64,000 nucleotides of DNA from an uncultured Thermodesulfobacteriota bacterium (GCA_964621615.1 CAZUMW010000002.1:64286-128285), one strand, 5' to 3'. Positions 43,661 to 59,281 are shown, counted from the stretch's first letter. Notes: a model not told the origin generated them from the letters alone. Program-made: numbers and translations.

Positions 43661-44158
43661 GTGAATATATTTATCCTTGACCGCGACATTAAAACCTGCG
43701 CGCGGTATCATGCGGATCAGCATGTAATTAAGATGATACTCGAAAGCGCACAAATGCTCTGCACGGTTATTAACGAAAGCGGCGGGTCAGCTCCCTACCG
43801 TTCAACCCACTGGAACCATCCCTGCACGCTCTGGGCGGCTGCGTCACTGTCAAACTGGCAGTGGCTCAGGAGCCTGGCTGTGGCGCTGAACGATGAATAT
43901 CGCTATCGGTTCCAGGCTGCTTCAGATCATGAATCAGCACGTGTGGTGCGCGCGCTTACCCTTCCCGCTATAACGGACAAAGGGATTACTGAGTTCGTCC
44001 AGGCTATGCCTGAAAAATACCGGGTGCCGGGCGATGCGGTGCAAGCCTATCGCCGCTTCTATATCGGTGAAAAAGCCCGGTTTGCAAAATGGTCCCGGCG
44101 CAGGCCGCCGAAATGGTTTGCGAACAGTGCGTGGGCTCATGTAAAAAATGATAGCTGA
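43661..44158 (+). CDS. Possible pyrimidine-dimer DNA glycosylase (DenV/EndoV-T4-like), low confidence
   Basis: N-terminal 'MNIFILDRDIKTCARYHADQHVIKMILESAQML' loosely parallels the T4 endonuclease V N-terminus. Otherwise a hypothetical. Confidence 0.3.
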   Translation: MNIFILDRDIKTCARYHADQHVIKMILESAQMLCTVINESGGSAPYRSTHWNHPCTLWAAASLSNWQWLRSLAVALNDEYRYRFQAASDHESARVVRALTLPAITDKGITEFVQAMPEKYRVPGDAVQAYRRFYIGEKARFAKWSRRRPPKWFANSAWAHVKNDS

Positions 44159-44317: not shown

Positions 44318-45607
44318 TTACCGAATCACCCTGGCCTGTGTGCGCGCAAGCGTTTCAAGCAGTGTCGCCCCTGCTGAGCCGGCATCGGTATTGCGGTACA
44401 CTGCCTGCAGCCGCTGTGCATTTTCGAGAATGGTTCGGTCGGTGAGGGCTGTTGTGAGCGCTGCCCGGAGGCGGTCGGCTGTGAGCCGCCGGTAGGGAAC
44501 CCTTACGGAAACGCCCGCAGCAACGCATCTGCTTGCAGTTTCGTACAGATCCTGCGTAACGGGAACAACCACTGACGGCAGCCCGTGTCTGATTGTGTCC
44601 TGGGCTATGCCCTGCCCGCCGTGATGGATAACCGCCGCTGCGCGGGGAAGGATTCTGGCGTGCGGAACAAACTGCTCCACGCGCAAGTTGTCTGGAACGC
44701 TTCCCAGCGCGGCAGTGTCTATATTTCTTCCCACGGCCATGACCACCTGATAGGGCTCATTTTTCAGGGCGTCCCGAACGACCGTGAAATAGGAAAGCGA
44801 ACGGAATATCTGCACGGTTCCCAAGGTAGCGTATATGAGCGGCCTGTCCTCCGGCAGTGTATCGATCCAGTCAAATGCCGCCTCATCGGTCAGGCTTTTG
44901 CCCCAGGACGCGGGGCCTACCAGGTGTGCTTGAGCCGGCCAGTCGGAGCGCTTGTATTCGAATCCCTCACAGGTGAAAACGAGAATCAGATACGGGGAAA
45001 GGGGCCCGTACAGCACACAGCGCCTGGATGGGGCCAGGTTTAAGGATGCGCGCACCCGGTTAAAGTCTGCATCGAAAGCGCGAAGAAACAAATCCTGACC
45101 GGCGCGTATGATACCGTAACAGAAGCGTGCCAGCGGGCTATTAGAGGGCGGCAGCCCCCATGTAGTGAACGGCGGCGCGTCGCGGGTTGGGATAAAGCCG
45201 GGTATCGGGCAGGAGGTTGCCCACAGCAGGCCGCAGGCTTCAGCAACAAACGCTCCGGCATAGGTTATCGAGTCGGTAACAACGGCGTCAGGGACAAAGC
45301 GCTCAACAGCATTTCTCAGATCACCAACCGTTTCCCCGGCGTGCTCAGCGAGCACCTTGATGCCGTAGTAATTGCCCCGCATCCCTTTGTGGCGGAGCAT
45401 TTTATTTGTCAGGCTGCTCATGCGGGAATGCCAGCCGGGAGGGCCGGCGGAAAAAAATTCAAGGCCGGCCGATTCGATGCTGTAGCGGAAATCAGACCCG
45501 GTAGCAACAACAACATGATGGCCGCGGCCCGCAAGCTCCACCGCCGAAGGCAGCATCGGATTTATATGCCCCAGCTGAGGCACAACGGAAAAAAGAAATC
45601 GCGCCAC
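44318..45607 (-). CDS. UDP-glycosyltransferase (GT1/MGT family)
   Basis: N-terminal 'FLFSVVPQLGHINPMLPSAVELAGRGHHV' and C-terminal 'HHGGQGIAQDTIRHGLP' donor-binding motif. Confidence 0.65.
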   Translation of the reverse strand: MARFLFSVVPQLGHINPMLPSAVELAGRGHHVVVATGSDFRYSIESAGLEFFSAGPPGWHSRMSSLTNKMLRHKGMRGNYYGIKVLAEHAGETVGDLRNAVERFVPDAVVTDSITYAGAFVAEACGLLWATSCPIPGFIPTRDAPPFTTWGLPPSNSPLARFCYGIIRAGQDLFLRAFDADFNRVRASLNLAPSRRCVLYGPLSPYLILVFTCEGFEYKRSDWPAQAHLVGPASWGKSLTDEAAFDWIDTLPEDRPLIYATLGTVQIFRSLSYFTVVRDALKNEPYQVVMAVGRNIDTAALGSVPDNLRVEQFVPHARILPRAAAVIHHGGQGIAQDTIRHGLPSVVVPVTQDLYETASRCVAAGVSVRVPYRRLTADRLRAALTTALTDRTILENAQRLQAVYRNTDAGSAGATLLETLARTQARVIR

Positions 45608-45622
45608 AGGAAATTCTCCGGG

Positions 45623-46267
45623 TCAGACTTTTATGAGTATCGCTTCTGCATCAACGCCGCCGAAAAGCCCCATGAAGGTGCGCTCCCTTTTTGTAATCCG
45701 GAAATCAGTCAGCCGGAGGCCGCTGCTTTCGCCCAGCGCCCGTACCCTGTTTAAAAATGTTTCATTGCCCAGAAGCCATATCGGTCCGTCACAGGGGTGA
45801 TTTACTATCCTGTTGGGTGCCTTGTGCTCTTTTGCTCCGACAATGTCGAAAATAACAAAAGCGCCGCCCGGCTTGAGAACTCTGGACACCTCACCAAAAA
45901 GACGTCCGTGATCAAGCAAATGATGAAAAGCGTCAGCAACGACAACCTTGTCAAAAGTCCGGTCTCGAAAGCACAGCCGGTACGCTGTGCCGGCGACGCC
46001 GTTTTTTATTCGTCCCTTTTTCCTGCCGAATGCAACAAAGCGCGGATTAATATCCAGGCTGACTGTGCGGAGGCCCGCCTTGTCGTTAAATAGCCGTGAG
46101 CAGCGGCCGGTGCCGCACCCGAGCTCAAGAACCAGCCCGTCCCCGGCCGAAATACTGACTTTGCGGAAGCGTTTGAGCAGGATATCGGGAAAATGCCCTA
46201 TAAAATCAAGAAGTTCATAAGCCCGCGCGTAGCGGTAATTTATGCGTGCGTAAAGTGAAGGTTTCAC
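45623..46267 (-). CDS. Class I SAM-dependent methyltransferase
   Basis: 'VLELGCGTGRCS' motif I and 'LKPGGAFVI' motif III. Confidence 0.6.
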   Translation of the reverse strand: MKPSLYARINYRYARAYELLDFIGHFPDILLKRFRKVSISAGDGLVLELGCGTGRCSRLFNDKAGLRTVSLDINPRFVAFGRKKGRIKNGVAGTAYRLCFRDRTFDKVVVADAFHHLLDHGRLFGEVSRVLKPGGAFVIFDIVGAKEHKAPNRIVNHPCDGPIWLLGNETFLNRVRALGESSGLRLTDFRITKRERTFMGLFGGVDAEAILIKV

Positions 46268-46475
46268 CGTTGCGGGACTCTCAGCTTGATGGTGGAAACC
46301 GTTTCTTTATATGATATCTCAGTGGGAGTGTCAACAAATGAACAGGACCGCCGGGGATGTTTGTGCTGTTCGAGAAGTAAAAAGTATTTCAAAATACAAA
46401 TTATTTTGATAACATAATATCCCATAAGTTATGTTTTTCCGGTATTACCTTTAGGCGGTATTTGAAGGAGAAACG

Positions 46476-47483
46476 GTGAATCAAAGCAGTCGCTGTCTGC
46501 AATGCGTTATGCCGGAGGTCACTGGGCATGTTGATTTTGACGAAGGCGGTGTGTGCAGTATGTGCCGCCGCCTGGCAGAAAACACACACCGGAGCCCAGA
46601 CCCGGAGCCCGGCGGCATTGAGGCGCTTCGTGAGGCAGTGGCGTGTATCAAGCGGGATTATCCCTGCAGCGGCGATTATGACTGTATCGCTGCCGTTTCC
46701 GGCGGCAAAGACAGCACCATGGCCCTGCATATTGTAAAAAAGCAGCTGCGCCTGAGCCCTCTGGCCGTGTTTGTGGACAACGGCTTCTGCAGCGACACCA
46801 TGTACCGGAATGTTATCAGCGCAACCGACATACTTGACGTTGACCTGATTATAATCAAGCCCCGCCTCATAAAAGCCCTGTTCAAATATCTGCTGCCATT
46901 GAAAAAGCCTATATATTACTGTAGGGTCTGTAATGCCCTGATTGACAGATACCTGCGCGAAACCGCAGCCCGCCATGGTGTGACCCTTTTGGTTGGCGGC
47001 TATACAAAGGGACAGGATTTTCTTAAAGGCAGGGAGCTGTTCTGGATATACAGGACTTCTGATGAGCAGCTGTGCGAGGCTACTGCGGGCCTTGCCGATT
47101 TCAGAGAGGTTCATGAAATGTTTCAGAGCCTGTCGCTTTATTTTCATAAGACGTTTAATGACGTATGTCTGGTTTCACCCTTTCAGTATGTGGATTATAA
47201 TGAGCGTGAGATTCTCGAAACTATTTCGCGCGATCTTAACTTTCAGCTGCCGTCAGACAGCTGGCCGGCCGGATCGACAAACTGCCTGTTCAATGTTGTG
47301 TCACAATTTTTGGCCGTAAGCTTTTTCGGCTACTCTCAGCATGAGGTGGAAATCAGCATGCTGGTCCGTAACGGAGAGATGACCAGGCAGCGGGCGCTTG
47401 AAATTGTCAACACCCCCATGCCTCAGGAACACATAAACATGGTGCTGGGAAGGCTCGGCCTTGTCAGTCATCAAATACTGTAG
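46476..47483 (+). CDS. N-acetyl sugar amidotransferase-like PP-loop ATP pyrophosphatase (WbpG/LPS-biosynthesis-like)
   Basis: N-terminal Cys-rich 'CLQC...CSMC' zinc ribbon followed by the PP-loop 'AVSGGKDST'. Confidence 0.55.
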   Translation: MNQSSRCLQCVMPEVTGHVDFDEGGVCSMCRRLAENTHRSPDPEPGGIEALREAVACIKRDYPCSGDYDCIAAVSGGKDSTMALHIVKKQLRLSPLAVFVDNGFCSDTMYRNVISATDILDVDLIIIKPRLIKALFKYLLPLKKPIYYCRVCNALIDRYLRETAARHGVTLLVGGYTKGQDFLKGRELFWIYRTSDEQLCEATAGLADFREVHEMFQSLSLYFHKTFNDVCLVSPFQYVDYNEREILETISRDLNFQLPSDSWPAGSTNCLFNVVSQFLAVSFFGYSQHEVEISMLVRNGEMTRQRALEIVNTPMPQEHINMVLGRLGLVSHQIL

Positions 47484-47794: not shown

Positions 47795-50700
47795 ATGTCC
47801 GGACAAAAAAAGTTCAGCTGCGTTCTGTTTGGAACCACAAGTCTTCTTATCCGCTGCGGCGATCTTATCAAACACCGCGGCCACACGATTACGGGAGTTG
47901 TTTCGTCCGACCCGGCGGTGTGCTCGTGGGCTGAAAAAAATTCGATTGCCTGCATTGCTCCCGGGGAAGATCCGGCCGGTTTTCTTGCCCGGGACCCTTT
48001 TGACGTGCTGTTCAGCATTATCAACCCGGCAATTCTGCAGCCGCCGATTCTGGACTTGCCTCGTAAGTATGCGATCAACTATCACGACGCCTTGCTGCCC
48101 CGGTATGCAGGCATGCATGCCACTTCCTGGGCACTCCTGAACCGGGAGCCGCAGCACGGCGTAACCTGGCACATTATGGAGCCGGGCGTCGACACGGGCG
48201 CTGTTTTGAAGCAGCGCTGCGTAACGGTAGGTGAGCGCGATACCGCCTTCAGCCTCAACCTTAAATGCTTTGAGGCTGCGATAAGCTCATTTTCAGAACT
48301 GCTGGAAGAGCTTGCAGCCGGCCGGGAAAAGCCCGTAGTACAGAAGAAGGATGAACGGTCCTACTTCGGCAAATATCGGCGCCCCGAGGCAGGGTGCGTG
48401 CTTTCATGGCGCCGAGGCCATGCAGAGATTGACGCCCTTGTCAGGGCGCTGGATTTCGGTTACGTGGAAAATCCTGTCGGGGTTCCTAAAATAGCAGTTG
48501 AAAACAGCTTTGTTATTGTTTCTAAATCACACATAGCAGGATCATCATCAGGCGCTGCACCCGGCACAATTGTAGCCTGTGATGATCGATCGGTGCAGGT
48601 GGCCACGGCCGGGCGCGATCTTGTTCTTGATCGTTTGCACGAACTCGATGGATCCCCGCTTCCCCTTCATGATTTTATGACCAGGTACCGGCTCAGCACA
48701 GGGGCCCGTCTTCCGGGACTTACCCCTGATACAGAGCACAGGCTTACAGCACTCTACAGTGATACCTGCAGGCATGAGGCCTACTGGGCCGAACAGCTGC
48801 TGCATGCGAGCCCGGTTTCGCTGACAGCAGATCGTTTGCTTTCGCCCTCCTGCCCGCAGCACCGGCTTGCCAGCGTTCTGCTGCGGGTGCCGAAACCGTT
48901 TATTCGTCTGAGCGAATCGGCCGGCGGCCCTGATCGCTGTCGGCAGCTGATTGCAGCATTTGCCGCATACATATCACGAGTCACCGAAGCTGATGATTTT
49001 GCCCTGGGATATATGCATGAGCAGCTGAGCGGCAGAATAGACGGTTTGGAAGCTTTTTTTGCATCGTGTGTGCCCCTTGTGCTGAAAGCCGGGCAGCAGG
49101 CATCCTTTGTAAATAGGATGGAACAAACGGCCGCAAGTGTTGCTGAGGCCGAGCGCCGCATTACCTATCCCAATGACCTGTTTGCCCGCTATCCTTGGCT
49201 GGAGCAGGCGGAGCCGGCTGTGCGGCGGGCCGCATTCCCGATCGCGGTGAGCAGGGTTCGCAGCCTCGATGACTATACAGCACCGCCGAACAGCCAGTGC
49301 GCGCTGGTTGTTTCCGACGATGTACGCGCCTGCCGGCTGGTGTTTGACACAAGCGTATTCAGCCGGGATTTTATGTACCGCATGCGGGAGCATCTTTGCT
49401 CTTTTATGCAGGCTGTCGGGGATAATCCCGACAGGCCAGTTGAAACACTTCCTCTTCTGACACCCGGCGAGCGCCAGAAAATAATAAACGAGTGGAACAG
49501 CACTGCAGCGGATTATGACCGGGGCGCCTGCATACACAGGCTTTTTGAAACACAGGCCTCTCGAAGCCCCCGCAATATCGCAACCGTGTTTGGCGGCACG
49601 GCGTTAACCTATGAGGAGCTTAACAAAAAAGCAAACCAGATTGCCTGGCACCTGCACAAAAAGGGGGTCGGACCCGGTGCGCTTGTCGGCATCAGCCTTG
49701 ACCGGTCTCATGAAATGATTATCGGTTTGCTGGCGATACTGAAAGCAGGGGGCGCCTATGTCCCGCTCGAGCCCTCATTTCCCCGTGAGCGGCTGCTGTC
49801 AATCGTGCGCAGTGCCGGAATCAGGAACATTCTCACGCAGAAAAAACACGCCGGTCTCTTTGCCGGGGCCGATGCCGTGCTGATTGAAACAGATCGTGAA
49901 GCAGAAACAATTGCACAGGAGAATACCGGGGAGGGCCCCTCGTGTGCAGCAGCGCCTGATACCACCGCCTATGTTATTTTCACCTCAGGCAGCACAGGTA
50001 AGCCGAAGGGCGCTGTTGTCGCACACCGGCCCGTTATAAACCTTATCCAGTGGGCACACAGAACCTTTTCGTTTTCTGAAAGAGATTCCGTTCTGTTTGT
50101 CACAGCGCTCAGCTTTGACCTGTCTGTTTTTGATGTATTCGGCCTGCTTGCCTGCGGCGGAACCATACACATTGTGAGCGACGAGCGCCGTAGAGATGTC
50201 AACTATCTTGTCGATATGATGCTGGAGGGGCGGATAACATTCTGGGATTCAGCGCCGGCAGCTCTTGATATGCTTGTTCCTGCTTTGCGGTCCAGGCAGC
50301 AGCTTTCAGATCCGGCTCTCAGGCTGGTTTTTCTAAGCGGGGACTGGATTCCTCTGTCATTACCCGATACGATAAGGCGGCATTTCCCCCGGGCAGAGGT
50401 AGTTGCGCTGGGCGGCGCGACAGAAGCAACGGTGTGGTCGAACTTTTTTCGCTTCGATGCAGTGGACCCGGCCTGGAAGAGCATTCCCTACGGGCGCCCT
50501 ATTCAGAACGCGCGCTATTATATCCTGGACCGGCGCCTTAACCCGTGTCCTGTCGGCGTTGCAGGAGATTTGTACATAGGCGGCGAGTGTCTGAGCAGCG
50601 GCTACCTCAACGAGCCGGAGCTGACAGCACAGAGCTTCCTGCATGATCCCTTCGCCGATCTGCCGGATGCACGAATGTACCGGACCGGAGACAGAGCCCG

Positions 50701-53161
50701 GTTTTATCCCGACGGCACAATAGAGTTTCTGGGAAGAAAAGACTTTCAGGTAAAAATCCGCGGCTATCGCATTGAGCTCGGCGAAGTGGAGTATGCGCTG
50801 AAAAGCCACCGTGGTGTGGCCGATGCCGTTGCTGCTGTCAGGAAAGACAGCGCGGGGGATCAAAAACTTGTTGCGTATGTCGTACCCCGCAGGGAAGCGC
50901 TTACAACGGCAAAGGGCCTGAAGGCACATGTGGGGGACTTTTTGCCTGATTATATGATACCCAACAGCATTGGATTCGTCGATGCGCTCCCGCTCACTGC
51001 AAACGGTAAAATCGATCGCAATGCACTCCCCTGGCCGGTACCCGCCCCGGCAGGCAGGACTGCCGGCTCCGCTCAGTCCGGACCGCACAGTGAAAACGCC
51101 AAGCGTGAAGCGGTGCTTTCCGTCATCAGGCAGGTGCTGCAGACAGAGGATATCGGACCTGACGATGATATGTTTGATTTCGGGGTCACCTCGTTGAATC
51201 TGATACAGATAGCAGAGATGCTCAAGGAGCGGTTCGGCGCCGCAGTCAGCGCGGAGACATTTCTGGATGCCCCGACGGCAGCGGGTATTGCCGCCCGGCT
51301 GGGAAACGGAAAGGCAGACGATGCGCCCCGGCCCTGTTGCGAGAAGCCCGGGGAGATTCGTGGCAGGGAGCCGGAGTTAGCGGTGAGCGCAAAAGCCGGC
51401 ACAGGAACCCAGGAAGTACTTTCCGTGATCAAGCAGGTGCTGCAGACAGAGGATATCGGACCTGACGATGATATGTTTGATTTCGGGGTCACCTCGTTGA
51501 ATCTGATACAGATAGCAGAGATGCTCAAGGAGCGGTTCGGCGCCGCAGTCAGCGCGGAGACATTTCTGGATTCCCCGACGGCAGGGGGTATTGCCGCCCG
51601 GCTGCAGCCTGCGGCGCCTGTAGCAGTTTCTTCGCCCGTTGCGCGGCATACCGCTGCGGCCGCTCCCGCCTCAATCCCGCTTGAGCACACCCTGCTGGAT
51701 CGAAATGCATATGTTCTCAGGGCAAGCAACCGCACTTTTTCTCCGGGAGGCCTTTCCCGAAAGAGCGTGGGGCGGCTCCTCTACCTTCTCCACCAGAAGG
51801 AAATCAACGGGGAGAAAAAATATCTATACCCTTCGGCCGGAGGGCTTAATGCAGTGCAGACATATCTGTATGCACACAAGGGCCGCATAGAGGGTATCCC
51901 TCACGGAATTTACTATTATCACCCTGTCGAGCATGCGCTGTACCGGATAACCGGCGATCCGGACATATCCCCCGCTATACATTTCCCCTTAAACCGGGAT
52001 AGCTTCGATGCGGCTGCGTTTTCTGTTTATTTCATCGCGCAGCTTGATGCAATAGAGCCTGTCTATACGGTCATGAGCAGAGAGCTGGTTACTCTTGATG
52101 CAGGATATATGACCCAGCTGCTGCAAAGCAGGCAGGAGGACATAGGGGTTAGACTTTGTCCGGTGAGCGGGGTTGACTTTGAGAGCATACGGCACTTTTT
52201 CCGGCTGAGCCCGGCACATATGTTTGTCCAGTGCCTCCTTGGCGGCCCTGCCGACTCATCCGCTCACCGCGCACAAGCACAAGATATAAAAACATATATA
52301 AAGACTACTGGGAGAAAGATACACGCTCACTTTCGCGAAGCCGACGGAGACCGGACATATCTGGACACCGACAGGATTGTTCAGTTTGAGCGCCTGAACG
52401 CCCTTTCCGAGGAGGAGCATGTATTGCTGCACCGCCGCCGGCTTCACCTGAGGACATTTACCAACGGCGCCCTTGGGCTAAAGCTTCCCCAGGGCCGTAT
52501 AGATGATGCAGAGTATATACTGCGGTCCACGCAGCGCAGCTACGAAAGCCGAACGGTGCCTTTTGTCTCCTTCAGCAGGTTCATGAAACTGCTTGGGCAG
52601 GAATCAATTGACGGCAAAGCCAGGCGCCTGTATCCTTCTATCAGCGGAACATATGCAGTGCACGCATATGTTTTTGTTAAGGAAAACGGTGTCGAGAATG
52701 TCGCCTCGGGCATATACCGCTATGAACCCGTTGAGCATTCGCTGCAGGCTGTCACGACTGGGCCTGCCTGCGACATTAAGGCGGCCCACTTTCCCGGAAA
52801 CCGGTCCTACTATAATCAGTCCAGATTTTCTCTTTTTCTCATTGCCGACCTGGAAAAGCTGCGGCCGAGCTTCGGCGAGGAGGCGCTCCACCTTGTAACG
52901 CTTGAAGCGGGGTGCATAGGGCAGCTGCTTCTGGACAGGCAGGCTGAATTTGATATGGGTGTTTGCTCCATCGGGGGCATGCGCTTTGATAAGATCAGAG
53001 ACGCCTTCAAGCTGAGCCGGGGGCAGATGCTCGTTCACAGCTTTGTGTGCGGTCCGGTCAGCCGGCTGCTTGCGGTCCCTGCCCACCGGAGGCTTATACC
53101 CCCGGCAGCGCCTCTTAAACACGGCATGCTGTCGCACTGGCTCAGGGGGCTTCGCTTGTGA
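47795..53161 (+). CDS. NRPS-like megaenzyme: formyltransferase (F), partial condensation-like region, adenylation (A), two tandem carrier domains (T-T), two tandem SagB/ThcOx-like nitroreductase (Ox) domains
   Basis: F domain: 'HDALLPRYAGMHATSWALLNRE...IMEPGVDTGAVL' (Fmt fold). C-A linker: 'LPLLTPGERQKIINEWNST'. A-domain cores: 'LTYEELNKKAN', 'YVIFTSGSTGKPKG', 'YRTGD', 'GRKDFQVKIRGYRIELGEVE', 'LPLTANGKIDR'. Two near-identical carrier domains carry 'DMFDFGVTSLNLIQIAE'. Two SagB-like repeats carry 'LYPSAGGLNAVQTYLYA' and 'LYPSISGTYAVHAYVFV'. Confidence 0.8.
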   Translation: MSGQKKFSCVLFGTTSLLIRCGDLIKHRGHTITGVVSSDPAVCSWAEKNSIACIAPGEDPAGFLARDPFDVLFSIINPAILQPPILDLPRKYAINYHDALLPRYAGMHATSWALLNREPQHGVTWHIMEPGVDTGAVLKQRCVTVGERDTAFSLNLKCFEAAISSFSELLEELAAGREKPVVQKKDERSYFGKYRRPEAGCVLSWRRGHAEIDALVRALDFGYVENPVGVPKIAVENSFVIVSKSHIAGSSSGAAPGTIVACDDRSVQVATAGRDLVLDRLHELDGSPLPLHDFMTRYRLSTGARLPGLTPDTEHRLTALYSDTCRHEAYWAEQLLHASPVSLTADRLLSPSCPQHRLASVLLRVPKPFIRLSESAGGPDRCRQLIAAFAAYISRVTEADDFALGYMHEQLSGRIDGLEAFFASCVPLVLKAGQQASFVNRMEQTAASVAEAERRITYPNDLFARYPWLEQAEPAVRRAAFPIAVSRVRSLDDYTAPPNSQCALVVSDDVRACRLVFDTSVFSRDFMYRMREHLCSFMQAVGDNPDRPVETLPLLTPGERQKIINEWNSTAADYDRGACIHRLFETQASRSPRNIATVFGGTALTYEELNKKANQIAWHLHKKGVGPGALVGISLDRSHEMIIGLLAILKAGGAYVPLEPSFPRERLLSIVRSAGIRNILTQKKHAGLFAGADAVLIETDREAETIAQENTGEGPSCAAAPDTTAYVIFTSGSTGKPKGAVVAHRPVINLIQWAHRTFSFSERDSVLFVTALSFDLSVFDVFGLLACGGTIHIVSDERRRDVNYLVDMMLEGRITFWDSAPAALDMLVPALRSRQQLSDPALRLVFLSGDWIPLSLPDTIRRHFPRAEVVALGGATEATVWSNFFRFDAVDPAWKSIPYGRPIQNARYYILDRRLNPCPVGVAGDLYIGGECLSSGYLNEPELTAQSFLHDPFADLPDARMYRTGDRARFYPDGTIEFLGRKDFQVKIRGYRIELGEVEYALKSHRGVADAVAAVRKDSAGDQKLVAYVVPRREALTTAKGLKAHVGDFLPDYMIPNSIGFVDALPLTANGKIDRNALPWPVPAPAGRTAGSAQSGPHSENAKREAVLSVIRQVLQTEDIGPDDDMFDFGVTSLNLIQIAEMLKERFGAAVSAETFLDAPTAAGIAARLGNGKADDAPRPCCEKPGEIRGREPELAVSAKAGTGTQEVLSVIKQVLQTEDIGPDDDMFDFGVTSLNLIQIAEMLKERFGAAVSAETFLDSPTAGGIAARLQPAAPVAVSSPVARHTAAAAPASIPLEHTLLDRNAYVLRASNRTFSPGGLSRKSVGRLLYLLHQKEINGEKKYLYPSAGGLNAVQTYLYAHKGRIEGIPHGIYYYHPVEHALYRITGDPDISPAIHFPLNRDSFDAAAFSVYFIAQLDAIEPVYTVMSRELVTLDAGYMTQLLQSRQEDIGVRLCPVSGVDFESIRHFFRLSPAHMFVQCLLGGPADSSAHRAQAQDIKTYIKTTGRKIHAHFREADGDRTYLDTDRIVQFERLNALSEEEHVLLHRRRLHLRTFTNGALGLKLPQGRIDDAEYILRSTQRSYESRTVPFVSFSRFMKLLGQESIDGKARRLYPSISGTYAVHAYVFVKENGVENVASGIYRYEPVEHSLQAVTTGPACDIKAAHFPGNRSYYNQSRFSLFLIADLEKLRPSFGEEALHLVTLEAGCIGQLLLDRQAEFDMGVCSIGGMRFDKIRDAFKLSRGQMLVHSFVCGPVSRLLAVPAHRRLIPPAAPLKHGMLSHWLRGLRL
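51097..51612 (+). repeat. Tandem direct repeat (~195 bp units, >95% identical) encoding the duplicated carrier domain
   Basis: 51112-51306 and 51418-51612 are nearly identical at the nucleotide level (gtgctttccgtcatcaggcaggtgctgcagacagaggatatcggacctgacgatgatatg...). Confidence 0.8.
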
Positions 53162-53165
53162 TCCG

Positions 53166-53993
53166 TTACAGCCTGCCGTCGGGATTTTCCGCAATATGCT
53201 TCAGGCTTTGCCCGAACCGGTATGAGTGCAGGCCATAGACAAGGCGGTGGTCGGTTGTGGCGAACAACGAAAGCGCCGCCCTGGCTGTTACTGCGTCTTT
53301 GTCAACGGCCGGCTGCACGGCAGGGCCGCTTAAATGAAATTTGTTTCCCATATTGATAGCCGGCAGGATATCCTTGCGCATTACAAAGTTAGCGGGTGTG
53401 GAATAGACGTGGCTTGAAAGCGTTATATTGGAAATCAGCCCGCGCTCAAACGCCAGGGTAAAGGCGACCCGCTGTCCGACAAGCCGATACAGGCCCCACC
53501 TGTAGGATATATTAGTTAAAAAGGTCAGCACGGGGCTTTGCCGGGCTGAAAGGTGTCGGCTTTTCGTGCTTTCAATGCCCGAAAACAGCTCCTGCTGAAT
53601 GAGCTCCAGCGGTTTTGTGTGCGGGTTTTCCAGCATGACGTATGTTGCGATATCGGTACCCGGCACCAGTACGGTATTTGCAATGTGTATTTCTTCAAGC
53701 TGATATGCGCTGCTTCCGAAAACGATCTGGTTGAATTCCGGGTTTTCCGCTATGGCAAGCGCCAGCAGCTTATTTGCAACCGGCGAAAAGGTGATCCTTC
53801 TGCCGGTACGGGAGCTGTATTCGCGCACGAACCGGCTCAGGTTCCCGGCTGCGATAGTATATTCAACGGAAGCGAACGGATCACAGGATTTTCTAAGCAG
53901 GCTGAGCATCTCAACTTTGTGCTGCCCGATGTGTTCGGCTTTCAGCCGATGCATTTTCAGTTTTTTTTCAGGCCTTTGAAAAAAAGTATGCAT
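53166..53993 (-). CDS. Free-standing 2-oxoacid-dehydrogenase-E2/CAT-fold acyltransferase (condensation-domain superfamily)
   Basis: Catalytic 'DHRLVYG' (DHRxxDG-type His-Asp) near the C-terminus, as in E2 lipoamide acyltransferases and NRPS C domains. Confidence 0.5.
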   Translation of the reverse strand: MHTFFQRPEKKLKMHRLKAEHIGQHKVEMLSLLRKSCDPFASVEYTIAAGNLSRFVREYSSRTGRRITFSPVANKLLALAIAENPEFNQIVFGSSAYQLEEIHIANTVLVPGTDIATYVMLENPHTKPLELIQQELFSGIESTKSRHLSARQSPVLTFLTNISYRWGLYRLVGQRVAFTLAFERGLISNITLSSHVYSTPANFVMRKDILPAINMGNKFHLSGPAVQPAVDKDAVTARAALSLFATTDHRLVYGLHSYRFGQSLKHIAENPDGRL

Positions 53994-54044: not shown

Positions 54045-57000
54045 TTAGATTTCTTCGAACCTGCCGTCACTGAGCGCGCAGGCGGGTACGGTTCTGTCCA
54101 CATTTCGCATAAGCTCCACCGTCGGGGGATGGCAGGTAAAAAGCAAAATCTGCAGGGAGCGGGAAAGCTCAACAATGGTTTCCGCAGCTGCGCGGGCCCG
54201 GTGCGGATCAAAATTTACCAATATATCGTCGAAAACCAGCGGGAGGGCCTCAGAGCGGCTGACAAATTCCTTCGCAAAACCGAACCGCAGCGACAGGTAC
54301 AGCTGCTCCGCCGTTCCCCGGCTGAGCTGATCGATCTCACGGGTGGAGCCGTCGGGAGCAATAACAACAATCTGATCCCGGCCGGCAGGCGCGCGGATTT
54401 CCGTGTAGCTTCCCCTGGTAAAAGAGGTGAAATAGCGCTCGGCCTCTTTCAGGACTGCCGGCCGGCGCTCGCGCTCGTATTTTTCCCGGGCCCTGTCAAT
54501 AAGGTGCTCTGCGATTTTCAGGACCGCCCATTGCTCGGCGGCGGACTCCACCCCGGCCCGGCAGGACCGGCCTTCAATAAGCAACCGGGAAAGCTCCTGT
54601 GAATTTTCCAGCTGCTCCAGCTGCGATCTGAGCTGACCGCCGTTGTCTATAGCATATCTTTGCTCCTGCTCTCTTTGATCTATCGCCTCCTCCAGCTCTT
54701 TGAGCTCGCAGGTCAGATCCTCAGACGTTGTGCTTTCAAGCTCTCTTTCCAGGTGCTCGAGCGCATCACCGCTGCCGGTGAGCTGTCGAAGGCGCGTTTC
54801 AAGAGTGTGAACAGCGCTCTCCAGCTCTTTTCGCCGCTCATAGTCGGAAGCCCTGAGCCTGAACGCTTCCTCATCGGTTACAGATGCTGCCTCAAACAGG
54901 TCGCTGATCTCTTTCCGGCGCTTTTCAATCTGGCTTTGCAGCGGCCGGATCTGATCGTTGCAGTCTTTCATGCGGCGTTTCAATTCATCTGCCCGGCTGC
55001 GGACTTTTTCTGCCTTTTCGAGTCGGGCGTGAAGAGCTGAAACGCATTTTGATACATCATCATTTGCCGGCTTTTCCCAGCCGGCTGCTTGTGCAATTGA
55101 GCGGACCTCACTGCAAAAGGAATCTATAAACTCCTGCAGGATTTGCAACTGCCTGCGGTGCCGGTCAACCTCGGCAAGCTGACCGCGGGCCTTTTCAACA
55201 GCCTGAAGCATCTGAGGAGCGCTTTCAGCAGAAAGGGTGGTCCGCAGGCCTGTCCGCTGCAGAAGGGCTTTCCACCGGCGCATGCAGTCCTGCAGCTCAG
55301 CCTGCGCGTGCAGGTAGTGCTGCTCAGCATCGCCGACCCTGCGTTTTGCCTGCTCAGTGTGCTTTCCGGCTTCTGCGAGTATCTTTTCTGCATGTTCCCT
55401 GTCGCGTGTAATCCGCTCATGCTGCTCAAGGCGGCTGAAAAGAGCATCAAGGAGTGCTGCAGGGTCATCCGGCGCAGCTTTCCCGATATCGCACTGCTTT
55501 GCTGCACAGAGCGCTTTTTCTTCATATGCGGCAATGGTTTCCGCCATCCTGCTGATCCGCATGCAGTCGCTCTCGATGGACTTCAGCTGCTCCCGGGCTG
55601 TTTCCAGCGTGGAAAGGGTGGTTTTAGCGCTTTCCGGGGTAAGGGTGTCAGGCAGCCCTGCAACAGACAGCCAGCCCCGCCACTGCCGGGTGACGGCATC
55701 CAGCTGCTGTTCGGCATGCGCTTTTTCGGCTTCAGACCGCTGCCGTCTTTCCTGTGCGGCTTTCAGGTGTTCGGCTGCGTCGTCCCGCCTTTGCTCCGCT
55801 ATCCGGAAGCGCTGCAGATTCTGCTGCTCCTGCTCTGTCAGCTCTTCCGCATCGTCAATGCTTTTTTCATCGCACGCATGATCAAAACCCAGTGCCCGTG
55901 CTTCTTTTTGAATCTGCGCATCTGTTTCTGCACGGCGGCTGTGTAATGCGTCGATTTCCTGCTGAAGCTTATAAATACTATTCTCGAGCTCTTTTATTTC
56001 CTTCTCTGATTCTGCTGCTCTTTTTTTCGTGCGGGCAGCCGAAGCTTTCAGGAGCAGGGCCGGCAGAACGGCAATTATTGCTGAAAGCCCGAGGATGAGG
56101 CATGCGAACACCCAGTCGCCGTGACGGATTCCTGCTGCAAGAAAGCCTGCAAGGCCGAGCGCGAGCACCAGGGCGGCCGACCAGGCAGGAACGGATGCCG
56201 TAGCGTGGGCGGGCCGGGCTTTTAACCGCGCGGCGCGTGCTTCAAGATCATGCTTTTTTTCTTCGCTGAAGCTGTGCATGAACAGATGCTGCCGGCGGGT
56301 GTTCAGCAGAGATCGCAGCCGGCGCAGCGAATCCTTCCGGCGGGCAAGCTCTTTGCTGTCTTTTGCTCCCGGCTCAGGTATCTCTGCGAGGGCTTTTTCC
56401 ATCCGGGCAAGATCAGCTTCGGCATCGGCAACAGCCTGTTGTGCATCACGGAGCCGCCGATCGGCGTCTTTCACCTCTGACCGGCATTCGGAAATACGGC
56501 GCTGATATTCAGACACCTGCTCCTGGACGGCAAGAGATGTGTCGAATGCTTTAAGGCGCTGTTCGGTCCAGTCAAGCCCGACATTTCGCAGCGTGTCGGA
56601 AAGGTGCTCTCGGCGGGTTTCGCACTGCTTTTCTATACCGGGCAGATCCCGCCGGGCATTTTCATAGGTTTCTCGGCCAAGCTTCAGCCTGCCAATGGCG
56701 TCTGTATCCATGTTTTCAAAGGGCCGGGGGAGCTGTTCGAGCCCGGTTTGTGCGCGGTGCTCATTTGTTTGAGCATCCTGCAGCAACCGCTTTTGCTGGC
56801 TCAGCTCAAGCTCCCGGTCGTGCACAGCCGCCTTTGCCGCGTCGACCATCCTGATATGCGCCTGTATCTCCTCCCTGACCGGCACGGACATATCAAAAAC
56901 TCTCAGATTTTCTTCATCCCATTCATCCCCGATATTATAAAGCATGTCAACGAGCTGCTTTTCAGCAAGTGAGAGGCTTTTTTGTGTATCCACGCAATTT

Positions 57001-58004
57001 TGCCGGTTTTTCTCGAAAAGCTGCAGGCTGCGGTCAAGGCGGTGAATATCATCAGCTGAGGAAAGCAGTATCGGCTCTTCCTGCAGAGCGACGAGCTCCT
57101 TCTCCGCGGTTTCTTTCTGAGAGCCAATGTCTTGCATACGATCCTCGATGCTGCGCTTTTCCGCGTTGAGGACATCAAGGCGGCTGACCCCCTCTTCGGG
57201 AAAGCGTTCAACTGCAGGAAGCATGAGCAGCTGATTCCGGCTGTCGCACAGGGCTATCCAGTCCTCCCGGGCCCCCAGGAGCAGCCGCACCCGCTCCAGC
57301 CGCTGCCGGGAGGTTTTCAGCTCTGCCGAAATATCCTGTATGGATAATTCGCATGATTGCAGCGCCGCATAAATGCGCTCGTACTCATCCTGGTCTTTTT
57401 CATGGGCTTTGATCTGCTGGTCAATGGTTTCTATGCGGCTGAGAAGCGCGTTTATTACCGGCTTTGATGCCTGGGGCGCAAACAGCTCGCCTGATTGCTT
57501 TTTCAGCTCCCGGGTGATGTCGGTTATTGTCCGGCGCCCGAACCCTGTGCCCGCGCTGTAAATCGCATCGCGCACCTTCTCTGTTTTAAGCGAATCAAAT
57601 GTCTGGAGCTCTGACAGGCTGAAGGCGAAAATGTTGTTGTACAGGTCAGCGGTCGCGGAGCCGATAAGCCGGTGAAATTTCTCTTCACCGCCCTGGGAGC
57701 CGTCGGGGAAGGTGACCGTGAACTGACCGGTTCCCTTGCCGGCGAAGCGCTCAACAATAACCCGGCCCTCGCTGCCGTCATACAGCACAACGCGGCCCCC
57801 TTTCCGGCCTCCTCTGAGCGGAGGATAAAACTCCTTTTGCCTGCGGGAGGGAAGTCCGAAAAGAACAGAGCGGAGAAACGCAAGCAGGGTTGACTTGCCG
57901 GCTTCGTTGTCGCCCAGCACAACAGTCAGACCAGGCGGTATGTTTTCAAACGACAGGTCTGCAAACCGGCCGAAGCCATCGATATGAAATTCAGCCATCC
58001 GCAT
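54045..58004 (-). CDS. YhaN/SbcC-like AAA ATPase with long coiled coils and a central TM hairpin
   Basis: N-terminal 'HIDGFGRFADLSFENIPPGLTVVLGDNEAGKSTL' Walker A. C-terminal 'LPLVFDDILVNFD' Walker B/D-loop. A hydrophobic stretch 'ALVLALGLAGFLAAG...LILGLSAIIAVLPALLL' sits mid-protein. Confidence 0.7.
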   Translation of the reverse strand: MRMAEFHIDGFGRFADLSFENIPPGLTVVLGDNEAGKSTLLAFLRSVLFGLPSRRQKEFYPPLRGGRKGGRVVLYDGSEGRVIVERFAGKGTGQFTVTFPDGSQGGEEKFHRLIGSATADLYNNIFAFSLSELQTFDSLKTEKVRDAIYSAGTGFGRRTITDITRELKKQSGELFAPQASKPVINALLSRIETIDQQIKAHEKDQDEYERIYAALQSCELSIQDISAELKTSRQRLERVRLLLGAREDWIALCDSRNQLLMLPAVERFPEEGVSRLDVLNAEKRSIEDRMQDIGSQKETAEKELVALQEEPILLSSADDIHRLDRSLQLFEKNRQNCVDTQKSLSLAEKQLVDMLYNIGDEWDEENLRVFDMSVPVREEIQAHIRMVDAAKAAVHDRELELSQQKRLLQDAQTNEHRAQTGLEQLPRPFENMDTDAIGRLKLGRETYENARRDLPGIEKQCETRREHLSDTLRNVGLDWTEQRLKAFDTSLAVQEQVSEYQRRISECRSEVKDADRRLRDAQQAVADAEADLARMEKALAEIPEPGAKDSKELARRKDSLRRLRSLLNTRRQHLFMHSFSEEKKHDLEARAARLKARPAHATASVPAWSAALVLALGLAGFLAAGIRHGDWVFACLILGLSAIIAVLPALLLKASAARTKKRAAESEKEIKELENSIYKLQQEIDALHSRRAETDAQIQKEARALGFDHACDEKSIDDAEELTEQEQQNLQRFRIAEQRRDDAAEHLKAAQERRQRSEAEKAHAEQQLDAVTRQWRGWLSVAGLPDTLTPESAKTTLSTLETAREQLKSIESDCMRISRMAETIAAYEEKALCAAKQCDIGKAAPDDPAALLDALFSRLEQHERITRDREHAEKILAEAGKHTEQAKRRVGDAEQHYLHAQAELQDCMRRWKALLQRTGLRTTLSAESAPQMLQAVEKARGQLAEVDRHRRQLQILQEFIDSFCSEVRSIAQAAGWEKPANDDVSKCVSALHARLEKAEKVRSRADELKRRMKDCNDQIRPLQSQIEKRRKEISDLFEAASVTDEEAFRLRASDYERRKELESAVHTLETRLRQLTGSGDALEHLERELESTTSEDLTCELKELEEAIDQREQEQRYAIDNGGQLRSQLEQLENSQELSRLLIEGRSCRAGVESAAEQWAVLKIAEHLIDRAREKYERERRPAVLKEAERYFTSFTRGSYTEIRAPAGRDQIVVIAPDGSTREIDQLSRGTAEQLYLSLRFGFAKEFVSRSEALPLVFDDILVNFDPHRARAAAETIVELSRSLQILLFTCHPPTVELMRNVDRTVPACALSDGRFEEI

Positions 58005-59281
58005 CAGTCATCATCCTCTATGAACATATCGACGCAGAGGCTTTCCGCCCGGTCAAGAAGCGATCGCATCATGCTGTCATCCGTCCTGCGTAAGATTTTG
58101 CCGGCTCTTTTATATTCATACAGCTCGGCAAGGACGCTTTGCAGCGCATCTGTTTCTGCAGGCGAGCGCCGTATCGATTCGATAAGGCGCAGCAGATCGC
58201 CGAGAAAGTCCTGCGCGCCTCGCCTTGCATCCAGGTCAACCTCCGGGCGGGTGCGGACACGCAGCTTTTCCACCCAGACGAACGGGGTCCGGTCGATGCC
58301 GAGCAGGTGCAGCGCATCAAGCAGGTCCTGTGCAGCATTGGGCCTGGTCAGCGAGCGATGAAGAGGGCCGCGGCCGCGGACAGTGACCCGGCAGATCACA
58401 TGGCGCCCCCCGGCGCTCCCGGCCAGCTCGCCCATCTGTTCCTCTATGCAGGCAATAAGCTTTTCCATGCTGTCAATCCGGGATATGTCCACCTCGCACG
58501 TCAGCCAACGCAGGCTGTCTGTTGCGATAAATTCCGGCTCCGCATCGAGGCTGCCCCCGGAGTTGACGCGCACAAAAAAACACCCGCGCGGGCCGGGCTC
58601 GTTAATGTGGCGTCCCTGCGTGTTTCCCGGATAGCCGATAAACGGGCTGCCGGGCCGCAGCACGGCAGATTCGTGAATGTGGCCGAGCGCCCAGTAATCA
58701 AGGCCTGCAGCAGCCAGTTCATCCACTGAGCGCGGAGCATACTGTTCGTGTCGCTGATTGCCGCCGGCATTGCAGTGGAGCAGGCCGATCTGGAAGGCCT
58801 CCTTGCCCTGCCGCTTAAAGCCTCTGCCGAAGCGCTTTCCGATTTTCCGTGTCGGGTAGCTGATTCCGTGTATGCGGGCCACCGGCACACCCTGCTTTTT
58901 GAACACGACGGATTCCAGGTCCGAGCCGAAGCTGTGTACGCTGTCCGGCATGGTTATCGCGTCGGCCCAGCCGTCGAGCGGATCATGATTGCCATGCACG
59001 ATATAGGCAGGGATACCGGCTTCAGCGAGCCTGCGCAGGCCGTCGCGAAACCGCAGCTGAGCCCGCAGGCTGCGGTCAGCGCCGTCATAAACGTCGCCCG
59101 CTACAAGTAAAAAATCAGCTTTTCTGTGTATGCACAGATCGATAACGGCATCAAATGCTGTAAATGTTGCCTCCCGGACCTCCTGAACAACACGGCTCTG
59201 ATCCTCAGGCAGGCGGCTGAGGCCGAGAAAAGGGCTGTCGAGATGAAGATCTGCTGCATGAACAAACGAGAAAGCGGGCAT
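58004..59281 (-). CDS. YhaO/SbcD-like calcineurin-type metallophosphoesterase nuclease subunit
   Basis: 'FVHAADLHLDSPF', 'LLVAGDVYD' and 'YIVHGNHDP' phosphoesterase motifs. 1-nt overlap with the ATPase gene. Confidence 0.7.
   Translation of the reverse strand: MPAFSFVHAADLHLDSPFLGLSRLPEDQSRVVQEVREATFTAFDAVIDLCIHRKADFLLVAGDVYDGADRSLRAQLRFRDGLRRLAEAGIPAYIVHGNHDPLDGWADAITMPDSVHSFGSDLESVVFKKQGVPVARIHGISYPTRKIGKRFGRGFKRQGKEAFQIGLLHCNAGGNQRHEQYAPRSVDELAAAGLDYWALGHIHESAVLRPGSPFIGYPGNTQGRHINEPGPRGCFFVRVNSGGSLDAEPEFIATDSLRWLTCEVDISRIDSMEKLIACIEEQMGELAGSAGGRHVICRVTVRGRGPLHRSLTRPNAAQDLLDALHLLGIDRTPFVWVEKLRVRTRPEVDLDARRGAQDFLGDLLRLIESIRRSPAETDALQSVLAELYEYKRAGKILRRTDDSMMRSLLDRAESLCVDMFIEDDD

Follow-up and report, generated by a model that had tools for sequence, protein, structure and literature searches.

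A candidate three-gene route to a thiazole-4-carbonyl unit, without a heterocyclisation domain, in an uncultured Thermodesulfobacteriota bacterium

How does an assembly-line enzyme come by a substrate for its own azoline oxidase when none of its domains is of the kind that closes azoline rings? This question is raised by a nonribosomal peptide synthetase (NRPS) gene at 47795-53161 (plus strand) of a 64,000-nucleotide stretch of DNA, hereafter the window, from an uncultured Thermodesulfobacteriota bacterium (GCA_964621615.1, CAZUMW010000002.1:64286-128285; positions are counted from its first nucleotide). The product starts with a formyltransferase (F) domain, ends with two oxidase (Ox) repeats and was likened, in a preliminary description of the window, to the synthetase LgrA at one end and to the oxidase ThcOx at the other. 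The finding is real but has to be reframed, since it is neither an LgrA-like nor a ThcOx-like oddity; it is a putative three-gene azole cassette devoid of a heterocyclisation (Cy) domain, in which the NRPS is accompanied by a PP-loop enzyme and by a small acyltransferase. We propose, with a confidence that we place just under even, that the three genes constitute one thiotemplated pathway to a C2-unsubstituted thiazole-4-carbonyl unit, operating without a condensation (C) or heterocyclisation domain.

The NRPS gene is a single unbroken open reading frame (ORF) encoding 1788 residues, and its domain order according to Pfam and NCBIfam is F, half a C domain, adenylation (A), two carrier (T) domains and two Ox domains, exactly as the preliminary description had read it. 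The profile matches by which that description proposed to verify the architecture were all obtained, with Formyl_trans_N at residues 80-161 (E 4e-16) followed by Formyl_trans_C at 202-298, AMP-binding at 584-938 (E 2e-81) followed by AMP-binding_C at 997-1072, PP-binding in two stretches (E 4e-28), Nitroreductase in two stretches (E 2e-16) and TIGR03605, the SagB family dehydrogenase domain, also in two stretches at 129 bits against a cut-off of 78.4; the Pfam E-values are all well past chance. The lack of a Cy domain was likewise confirmed with Pfam; the NRPS has no thioesterase (TE), C or reductase (R) domain for release either, and no C, ketosynthase (KS) or TE was found inside the NRPS or in its conserved neighbourhood, in the window and in the orthologous loci.

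Among 5.8 billion proteins, the full F...Ox-Ox architecture forms three clusters only (45-53% identity) amid hundreds of F-starting NRPSs, the closest full-length relatives being 53% identical; the best match among the GTDB representatives, which do not include the window genome, is 52% identical, and a look-up of the NRPS sequence returned no exact-sequence record. The protein P0006 (2980 aa, F...Ox) was rejected as an orthologue: it is part of a multimodular line of the ordinary kind, in which the loader has a Ser code and a Cys module is followed by a single Ox. A scan of GTDB, one genome per species, with the Ox-Ox alignment gave 54 loci, nine of which, in eight metagenome-assembled genomes (MAGs) labelled Thermodesulfobacteriota, Proteobacteria or delta-proteobacterial, carry a window-type cassette. 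About 20 other loci, from many phyla, hold a tandem Ox-Ox inside large Cy-containing NRPS or NRPS-polyketide synthase (PKS) proteins, hosts including Desulfocucumis, Paenibacillus dendrobii, Sulfidibacter, Fulvivirga, Rapidithrix, Ruminiclostridium sufflavum and MAGs of Verrucomicrobia and SAR324. The search of public sequence sets thus bears out the rarity of the full architecture (three clusters, nine GTDB cassette loci) but not that of an Ox-Ox joined in cis to an A-T module, which had been presented as unusual and turns out to be uncommon rather than unique; what is particular is the combination of a tandem Ox-Ox with an F loader and no Cy.

The composition of the cassette was deduced from its conservation. 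The PP-loop gene, the NRPS gene and the acyltransferase gene co-occur in ten loci (L001-L004, L006, L008, L013, L049, L071 and L073), and five more (L007, L012, L014, L029 and L072) have a partial cassette, with contig ends or assembly frameshifts. In every related locus where the contig extends far enough, 11 in all, the PP-loop gene lies directly upstream of the NRPS gene, and only it and the acyltransferase accompany the NRPS; the acyltransferase is conserved next to the NRPS in nine loci. All cassette carriers found are uncultured, with genomes of the Thermodesulfobacteriota type, and the hosts are mostly anaerobes. The suggestion that the enzyme and its neighbours look like an uncharacterised biosynthetic cluster holds as to the cluster being uncharacterised. 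The neighbours conserved with the NRPS, however, are the PP-loop enzyme and the acyltransferase and not the glycosyltransferase and methyltransferase encoded nearby. This pattern also bears on whether the NRPS might be an ordinary formylating starter for a remote assembly line, flanked by incidental neighbours, since loaders with an F-half-C-A-T order commonly start larger NRPS/PKS lines. We consider this improbable: none of the loci has a C, KS or TE gene close to the cassette, the PP-loop enzyme and the acyltransferase are conserved across loci at 44-64% identity when all else varies, and a fused Ox-Ox would lack a substrate.

Which amino acid enters the proposed pathway was judged from the A domain (49544-51028, residues 584-1078; TIGR01733, 443 bits). 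Its specificity (Stachelhaus) code, which the preliminary description had recommended extracting, is the cysteine-like DLFDFSLVWK, and the same code occurs in every cassette orthologue. Indeed, a Cy-A-T-Ox-Ox module in locus L024, whose Cy motif is DMLIIDGES (DxxxxD), has an A code matching it at 10 of 10 positions, and DLFNFSLVWK, a 9/10 match, sits behind Cy domains in L019 and L038, which places the window A domain in the cysteine-type group that feeds heterocyclisation. Single-Ox Cy modules of the same data set have the canonical Cys code DLYN[LM]SLIWK, and the codes of tandem Ox-Ox modules in the GTDB loci are those for Ser (DVWHFSLVDK) and Thr (DFWNIGMVHK) or DLF[ND]FSLVWK. The predicted substrate is L-cysteine, as read from the code.

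Acidic residues at position 278 occur in Stachelhaus codes for amino acids with basic side chains. The Asp at this position of the window code is unusual among Cys codes and, with that background, feeds a second possibility, namely that the same logic applies to Ser or 2,3-diaminopropionate and yields an oxazole-4-carbonyl or imidazole-4-carbonyl unit. Furthermore, the window code agrees with the Ser code DVWHFSLVDK at 6 of 10 positions, as many as with DLYNLSLIWK, and the oxidase found with Ser and Thr modules is of the tandem Ox-Ox form. On the other hand, the Ser and Thr modules of this data set use canonical Ser and Thr codes, the window code is one residue away from DLFNFSLVWK and has the LxxxSLxWK pattern of Cys codes, an identical code stands behind the Cy domain of L024, and no genes for 2,3-diaminopropionate synthesis are conserved in the cassette. 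We therefore hold a substrate other than cysteine to be quite unlikely.

In the first step of the proposed pathway, the A domain would activate L-cysteine and load it onto either of the carrier domains, T1 (51110-51301) or T2 (51416-51604). Both were recognised by PP-binding matches, and their phosphopantetheine serines, Ser1133 and Ser1234, are kept and are invariant in three full-length homologues. T1 and T2 are the two copies of a 189-nt direct repeat (51113-51301 and 51416-51604) with 97% DNA identity, which suggests a recent duplication or gene conversion; the orthologues in L001, L006 and L071 have three T domains.

The F domain (47795-48694, residues 1-300; PF00551 and PF02911 for its N- and C-terminal subdomains) is of the N10-formyl-tetrahydrofolate-dependent type. 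The triad Asn95/His97/Asp133 corresponds in the alignment to Asn-x-His and Asp in E. coli FMT and is invariant in three full-length homologues, so that the functional-looking formyltransferase claimed at the N terminus, which would have been doubtful without the catalytic His and Asp, is indeed there. In the second step, it would transfer a formyl group from N10-formyl-tetrahydrofolate to the amine of the loaded amino acid to give N-formyl-Cys-S-T, by analogy with LgrA and OzmO-type loaders; the N-formyl-aminoacyl thioester put forward by the preliminary description is retained in our model as an intermediate. The region between F and A (48764-49483, residues 324-563) is, as had been noticed, only the C-terminal half of a C domain: the Pfam Condensation match is limited to profile positions 191-455 (E 2e-9), the region aligns to positions 191-455 of the Txo1 chain, and no HHxxxDG motif is present at residues 324-563. 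It is probably a structural linker or platform between F and A. It is not peculiar to the window protein either, as a gap of about 273 aa separates F from A in nearly all of 80 F-starting homologues and the half-C is the standard linker of this class of F loaders.

LgrA, which had been taken as the model for the F loader, does not fit in length; the F-linker-A-T lengths of about 1150-1220 aa agree, in a comparison by length only, with PtxE (1154 aa; PMC5764310) and with the F-A-peptidyl carrier protein (PCP) loaders of about 1150 aa of oxazolomycin, conglobatin and phthoxazolin type. Of the traits of this OzmO/PtxE class, the NRPS has the F fold and triad and also the single chain in which F is followed by a linker of about 270 aa and then by A and T; no downstream domain of C or KS type that could take over the product was found in the NRPS or in the conserved neighbourhood.

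How, then, would the ring be closed? The candidate enzyme, overlooked in the preliminary description, is encoded at 46476-47483 (plus strand) and is a PP-loop (AANH, adenine nucleotide alpha hydrolase) ATP pyrophosphatase of 335 aa, assigned from motifs, fold and homology. It has an N-terminal Zn ribbon (C7, C10, C27 and C30) and the SGGKDS motif at 75-80, invariant and including D79 and S80; C149, C152 and C270 are invariant in 33 members of its family. These positions correspond to D77/S78 and to C154/C157/C284 of CtaC, all essential residues, the last three of them [4Fe-4S] ligands, of the [4Fe-4S]-dependent, carrier-protein-dependent thioamide synthetase of closthioamide (PMC6772006), so that the protein carries a CtaC-type ligand motif for a putative [4Fe-4S] cluster. 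One of its homologues, P0183 (WP_090933233.1, 43-44% identical), is itself among the 100 CtaC homologues of Table S5, most of the homologues surveyed there coming from anaerobes (PMC6772006). The three Cys are kept in every alignable thiotemplate-associated relative, including plasmid genes of Bacillus thuringiensis, Streptomyces and Roseovarius.

The AlphaFold2 (AF2) model of the PP-loop protein (predicted local distance difference test, pLDDT, 92.7) has its best fold match in 8wex, a Legionella amidotransferase that converts an amide to an amidine (E 3e-14, template-modelling score, TM, 0.64), followed by TtuA, NcsA and LarE, which are Fe-S sulfurtransferases. Amidine formation is nevertheless unlikely: true sugar amidotransferases lack the Fe-S-type Cys and have HisH/HisF2 partners instead, as in L070, where HisH and HisF2 genes adjoin the true enzyme. 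No HisH/HisF2 partner or sugar-pathway gene was found near the PP-loop gene in the window and the orthologous loci, and the protein scores 131 bits on TIGR03573 (N-acetyl sugar amidotransferase, WbuX/PseA), below the cut-off of 203. Separately, a plasmid of Agrobacterium sp. MA01 (L068, 1856-4134) has an FMT-like formyltransferase gene directly upstream of an annotated N-acetyl sugar amidotransferase, which suggests that a formyl donor and a PP-loop enzyme are also paired in a sugar pathway, perhaps towards a formamidino sugar.

A second group of PP-loop proteins gives the chemistry a proposed precedent. In the pairs ozmO/ozmP, congA/congE and ptxE/ptxD, the PP-loop protein is suggested to activate the formamide oxygen and to close an oxazole after one PKS extension (PMC4504003, PMC5764310), and Itm15 has been reported as the inthomycin cyclodehydratase (PMC8706051). 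The window protein would be a CtaC/OzmP-type enzyme that activates an amide oxygen, as judged from its motifs. In the third step, this separate enzyme would adenylate the formamide oxygen of N-formyl-Cys-S-T, and the side-chain sulfur would close the ring with loss of AMP to give thiazoline-4-carbonyl-S-T, either directly, with the thiolate perhaps on the unique iron of a [4Fe-4S] cluster, or through a transient thioformamide; with cysteine, both routes would end in the thiazoline. The F domain and the PP-loop enzyme would thus jointly replace the upstream acyl donor and the Cy domain of ordinary thiazole modules. A [4Fe-4S] PP-loop enzyme acting as a heterocyclase on carrier-bound N-formyl-cysteine would make this a third thiotemplate route to thiazoles, independent of Cy and YcaO, which joins a formylation domain to an asymmetric single-chain flavin mononucleotide (FMN) oxidase and a C2-H thiazole-4-carbonyl product in uncultured bacteria of the sulfate-reducer type; this joint claim is plausible, and we grant it slightly less confidence than the pathway as such.

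Relatives of the PP-loop gene were also seen in other settings. In Clostridium botulinum and C. sporogenes (L060/L061, 8052-19894), a 42% identical homologue belongs to a widely conserved cluster that also comprises a phosphopantetheinyl transferase, an aminoacyl-tRNA synthetase-like ligase, a GCN5-related N-acetyltransferase (GNAT), an A-T protein, a TE, a KASIII, an AMP-ligase, an acyl carrier protein (ACP) and a PEP-utilising enzyme, and in which the N-acyl group may be acetyl instead of formyl. On plasmids of Streptomyces sp. NBC_01216 (L066, 8932-11112) and Roseovarius pelagicus (L067, 6415-14463), a PP-loop module with the CxxC...C motif is fused into NRPS proteins, in the Streptomyces case to a condensation domain.

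The fourth step would fall to the fused Ox-Ox, which, by analogy with BmdC and Cy-A-T-Ox modules, would oxidise the thiazoline to thiazole-4-carbonyl-S-T. The two SagB-type nitroreductase repeats announced at the C terminus are borne out by the profile matches given above, including TIGR03605, and by fold. Ox1 (51680-52249, residues 1296-1485) was delimited by its match to BmdC and by alignment, and Ox2 (52505-53059, residues 1571-1755) contains the best TIGR03605 stretch (1603-1753). The nearest solved relative of Ox1 is BmdC (E 4e-22), the bacillamide NRPS oxidase that acts on a PCP-bound thiazoline (PMC8795117), while ThcOx and McbC give sequence E-values of 0.18-0.25; moreover ThcOx, named by the preliminary description as a tandem oxidase, has RRE-like (RiPP recognition element, RiPP standing for ribosomally synthesised and post-translationally modified peptide) domains and one Ox domain (PMC8795117). 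In the AF2 model of the didomain (predicted template-modelling score, pTM, 0.84), each half superposes on BmdC with a root-mean-square deviation of 1.6-2.0 A, and the best match of the whole didomain is 3eo7 (Ava_2154; 474 aligned columns, E 8e-20, 16% identical). The linker between the repeats (52250-52504, residues 1486-1570), delimited by low model confidence (low pLDDT at model residues 206-254), is probably a wrapping segment; wrapping loops exist in BmdC and McbC (PMC8795117).

The residues are distributed unevenly over the two repeats. Ox1 keeps the catalytic Tyr1424 and only part of the FMN contacts (R1309, S1311, R1313 and N1400), whereas Ox2 keeps all of them (R1577, T1579, R1581, N1669 and G1727) and has Phe1693 at the position of the catalytic Tyr. 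The functional residues of BmdC were counted across 32 tandem didomains: the catalytic Tyr is present in 32/32 first repeats and in 11/32 second repeats, while the four FMN contacts (Arg, Arg, Asn and Gly) are found in 9, 15, 11 and 1 of the 32 first repeats and each in 31 or 32 of the second ones; single Ox domains keep both Tyr and contacts. This complementary loss points to an asymmetric pseudo-dimer with one composite active site, formed in the window protein by Tyr1424 from Ox1 and the FMN held by Ox2, a pattern seen in fold and residues alike. The residues expected of an NRPS azoline oxidase (Arg, Arg, Asn and Gly plus Tyr) are thus all there, split between Ox2 and Ox1, and the Cy domain otherwise expected in the same module is lacking from the window NRPS. 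A single-chain arrangement with one site suits a monomeric synthetase; the BmdC dimer makes its NRPS dimerise (PMC8795117).

Where does the substrate of this oxidase come from? The preliminary description allowed for supply in trans, and the similarity to SagB and TIGR03605 could suggest that the Ox-Ox acts on azolines of a separately made, RiPP-like peptide. This is highly improbable in our view, since no YcaO, precursor peptide or RRE was found in the window neighbourhood and the orthologous loci, Ox1 is closest to an NRPS-dedicated oxidase, and in the GTDB loci the didomain invariably follows T domains within the same chain. Ox1 and Ox2 of the window share 42-59% identity with the Ox-Ox of Cy-containing Ser/Thr/Cys modules, equal to that shared with their own orthologues. 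As the PP-loop enzyme can replace the missing Cy, the substrate is most likely made in cis.

The strongest comparative argument for the model comes from relatives that use glycine. PP-loop homologues 44-47% identical to that of the window adjoin F-A-KS loaders with the Gly code DILQLGMIWK (L062, L077, L079 and L086). In Pelosinus propionicus (L062, 10001-20993), an F-A protein and a trans-acyltransferase (trans-AT) PKS are encoded directly downstream of the P0183 gene, and the metagenome contigs L077, L079 and L086 show the same order of PP-loop, F-linker-A(Gly) and trans-AT PKS; all four look like anaerobe counterparts of the oxazolomycin-type starter, although, given the Fe-S ligands of their PP-loop proteins, a thiazole and not an oxazole could be the ring that they form. 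Within one PP-loop subfamily, a Gly-code loader thus goes with a PKS and no oxidase, and a Cys-type code goes with a fused Ox-Ox and no PKS. Gly loaders can do without an oxidase because a ring closed on an enol is aromatic from the outset, and the co-variation is the one predicted by ring closure with an obligatory oxidation after it.

The same co-variation weighs on a reading in which the thioamide is the end point, that is, in which a CtaC-like PP-loop enzyme makes a persisting thioformamide and the Ox-Ox performs another oxidation, for example C-alpha/C-beta dehydrogenation or S-S or ring formation, towards an N-thioformyl (dehydro)amino acid that is perhaps metal-binding. The D/S and CxxC...C motifs shared with CtaC at matching positions, the presence of P0183 on the list of CtaC homologues and the mostly anaerobic hosts, as for the majority of that list, all speak for it (PMC6772006), and nitroreductase-fold enzymes such as AlbA and the OxzB oxidase domain are capable of alpha,beta-dehydrogenation (10.1101/2020.06.11.147165). 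It would, however, leave the co-variation unexplained; the Ox-Ox lineage otherwise occurs solely after T domains of Cy-containing modules and its nearest solved relative is a thiazoline oxidase, and cyclisation is to be expected of a thioformamide that has a free Cys thiol next to it. A persisting thioamide is accordingly unlikely, if a little less so than a change of amino acid.

The last step of the proposed thiazole pathway concerns release. The gene at 53166-53993 (minus strand) encodes a stand-alone acyltransferase of 275 aa that resembles the catalytic core of E2 enzymes, with a PF00198 match in 10/10 members of its family and a DHR...G motif (D248-H249-R250) invariant in it; the narrow family, which comprises 58 clusters and occurs in thiotemplated gene clusters, has a profile that aligns collinearly with E2 catalytic domains (3mae, E 6e-10). 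No E1 or E3 gene is adjacent to it in the window. As the NRPS has neither TE nor C nor R, the simplest role for the acyltransferase is to offload the product by thioester exchange: it would take the acyl group over from the thiol of phosphopantetheine and pass it to an acceptor, for instance coenzyme A (CoA). Elsewhere, members of the family lie beside a stand-alone C/PapA-type protein, an AMP-ligase, a short-chain dehydrogenase/reductase and a small ORF (L063, 10001-10795; L064, 10001-10828), and in L064 also near genes for type II fatty acid synthase-like KS, FabA and ACP; the family may provide general offloading or transfer enzymes of thiotemplated lipid pathways.

Several points weigh against the pathway that we propose. 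CtaC, the only characterised enzyme tied to the PP-loop protein by a published homologue list, is a thioamide synthetase and not a cyclodehydratase (PMC6772006), and the link to OzmP, CongE and Itm15 consists of gene context and shared motifs. A distant PP-loop member in L028 (20% identity) is found together with an NRPS that contains Cy and next to which a cyclodehydratase would be redundant. At position 278, the A code has Asp instead of the Asn of Cys codes, and the substrate could therefore differ from Cys; and the acyltransferase family is also present in unrelated lipid-type clusters, so that its role in the cassette would be generic. Finally, the model is built on sequence, context and predicted structures; the literature searched gave no natural product of this origin, and a search for formyl-cysteine, thiazole-4-carboxylate, thioformamide and F-domain plus nitroreductase found no description of this pathway.

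Around the cassette, the window holds genes that are not conserved with it. The macrolide-type glycosyltransferase (44318-45607) and the DVU_1556-like methyltransferase (45623-46267), both upstream of the cassette and on the minus strand, are conserved in no orthologous locus and were not counted as cluster members, and SbcC/SbcD-like genes (54045-59281, minus strand), immediately downstream of the cassette, are not conserved with it elsewhere. An ORF at 46401-47147 (minus strand) was treated as spurious because it has no family match and overlaps the PP-loop gene. A TusE-like sulfur carrier at 43661-44158 (NCBIfam E 0.05) was rejected, Pfam weakly indicating a pyrimidine-dimer glycosylase for this ORF. 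An Rfam scan of the whole window returned no riboswitch or other RNA family. Five other cassettes (L004, 17286-20438, and also L008, L012, L029 and L049) have with them a gene encoding a beta-propeller protein with LVIVD repeats, about 1050 aa long, which is absent near the window cassette. A 4306-nt contig of the JGI metagenome 3300037504 (L065) encodes an acyltransferase 97% identical and an Ox-Ox 93-97% identical in amino acids to those of the window, which indicates that a near-identical organism is present in that sample.

Thiazoles and oxazoles are credited to Cy domains in non-ribosomal pathways and to YcaO enzymes in ribosomal ones, and the cassette points to another solution, in which an oxidase is combined with a formyl donor and an ATP-dependent activator of the amide oxygen. 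Consisting of three genes and using one amino acid, it is compact enough to be directly testable and potentially useful for the enzymatic production of azole acids. It connects the thioamide synthetase CtaC with OzmP, CongE and Itm15, the proposed oxazole cyclodehydratases, two enzyme groups that had been treated apart, and raises the question of whether oxazoles or thiazoles are made by the F-A(Gly)-PKS cassettes of anaerobes. The decay of residues in the 32 tandem Ox-Ox shows how a dimeric flavoenzyme was turned into a single-chain domain with one site for a monomeric assembly line, and in the small E2-core-like protein, thiotemplated pathways without a thioesterase may have an offloading enzyme that had gone unrecognised.

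Each part of the cassette has known counterparts, from which it departs in definite ways. Like the window protein, LgrA has an N-terminal F domain that formylates a T-bound amino acid; its F joins A directly (F-A-PCP of 776 aa in 5es5) where a half-C linker of about 270 aa intervenes in the window protein, and its F domain resembles that of the window weakly (E 2e-6 against about 1e-19 for FMT and ArnA). OzmO/OzmP, CongA/CongE, PtxE/PtxD and Itm15 share with the window cassette an F-(linker)-A-T loader beside an SGGKDS PP-loop protein of about 335-360 aa (PMC4504003, PMC5764310, PMC8706051). They use glycine, and the attacking group is an enol, that of a beta-keto group extended by the PKS, with an aromatic product obtained without oxidation, whereas the window cassette has no PKS but a Cys-type A domain, a fused FMN oxidase didomain and an E2-like acyltransferase. 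CtaC also acts on carrier-protein-bound amides and has SGGKDS and CxxC...C at matching positions and an N-terminal Zn finger; it swaps O for S in beta-alanyl amides of a non-NRPS thiotemplated pathway, while the window system would present an N-terminal formamide beside a thiol and has an azoline oxidase fused to the carrier.

On the oxidase side, BmdB/BmdC and the Cy-A-T-Ox modules of EpoB, BlmIII and MtaD type likewise employ an FMN-dependent oxidase of nitroreductase fold on a T-bound thiazoline. Their ring is closed by Cy from an upstream acyl-Cys and their Ox is homodimeric or single; in the window NRPS, there is no Cy, formyl would be the sole upstream acyl group and the Ox is a fused asymmetric tandem. 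ThcOx, SagB and McbC belong to the same nitroreductase/SagB superfamily by TIGR03605 and fold matches, but act on ribosomal peptides and are remote in sequence. The protein 3eo7 is also a tandem nitroreductase forming a pseudo-dimer inside one chain; it is stand-alone and has no assigned function. E2 cores share PF00198, the DHR...G motif and acyl transfer between a swinging-arm thiol and CoA with the acyltransferase, which is a catalytic core only, without lipoyl or subunit-binding domains. Taken together, a known pair of F loader and PP-loop enzyme appears recombined with a known NRPS oxidase, which would yield an azole in the absence of a Cy domain.

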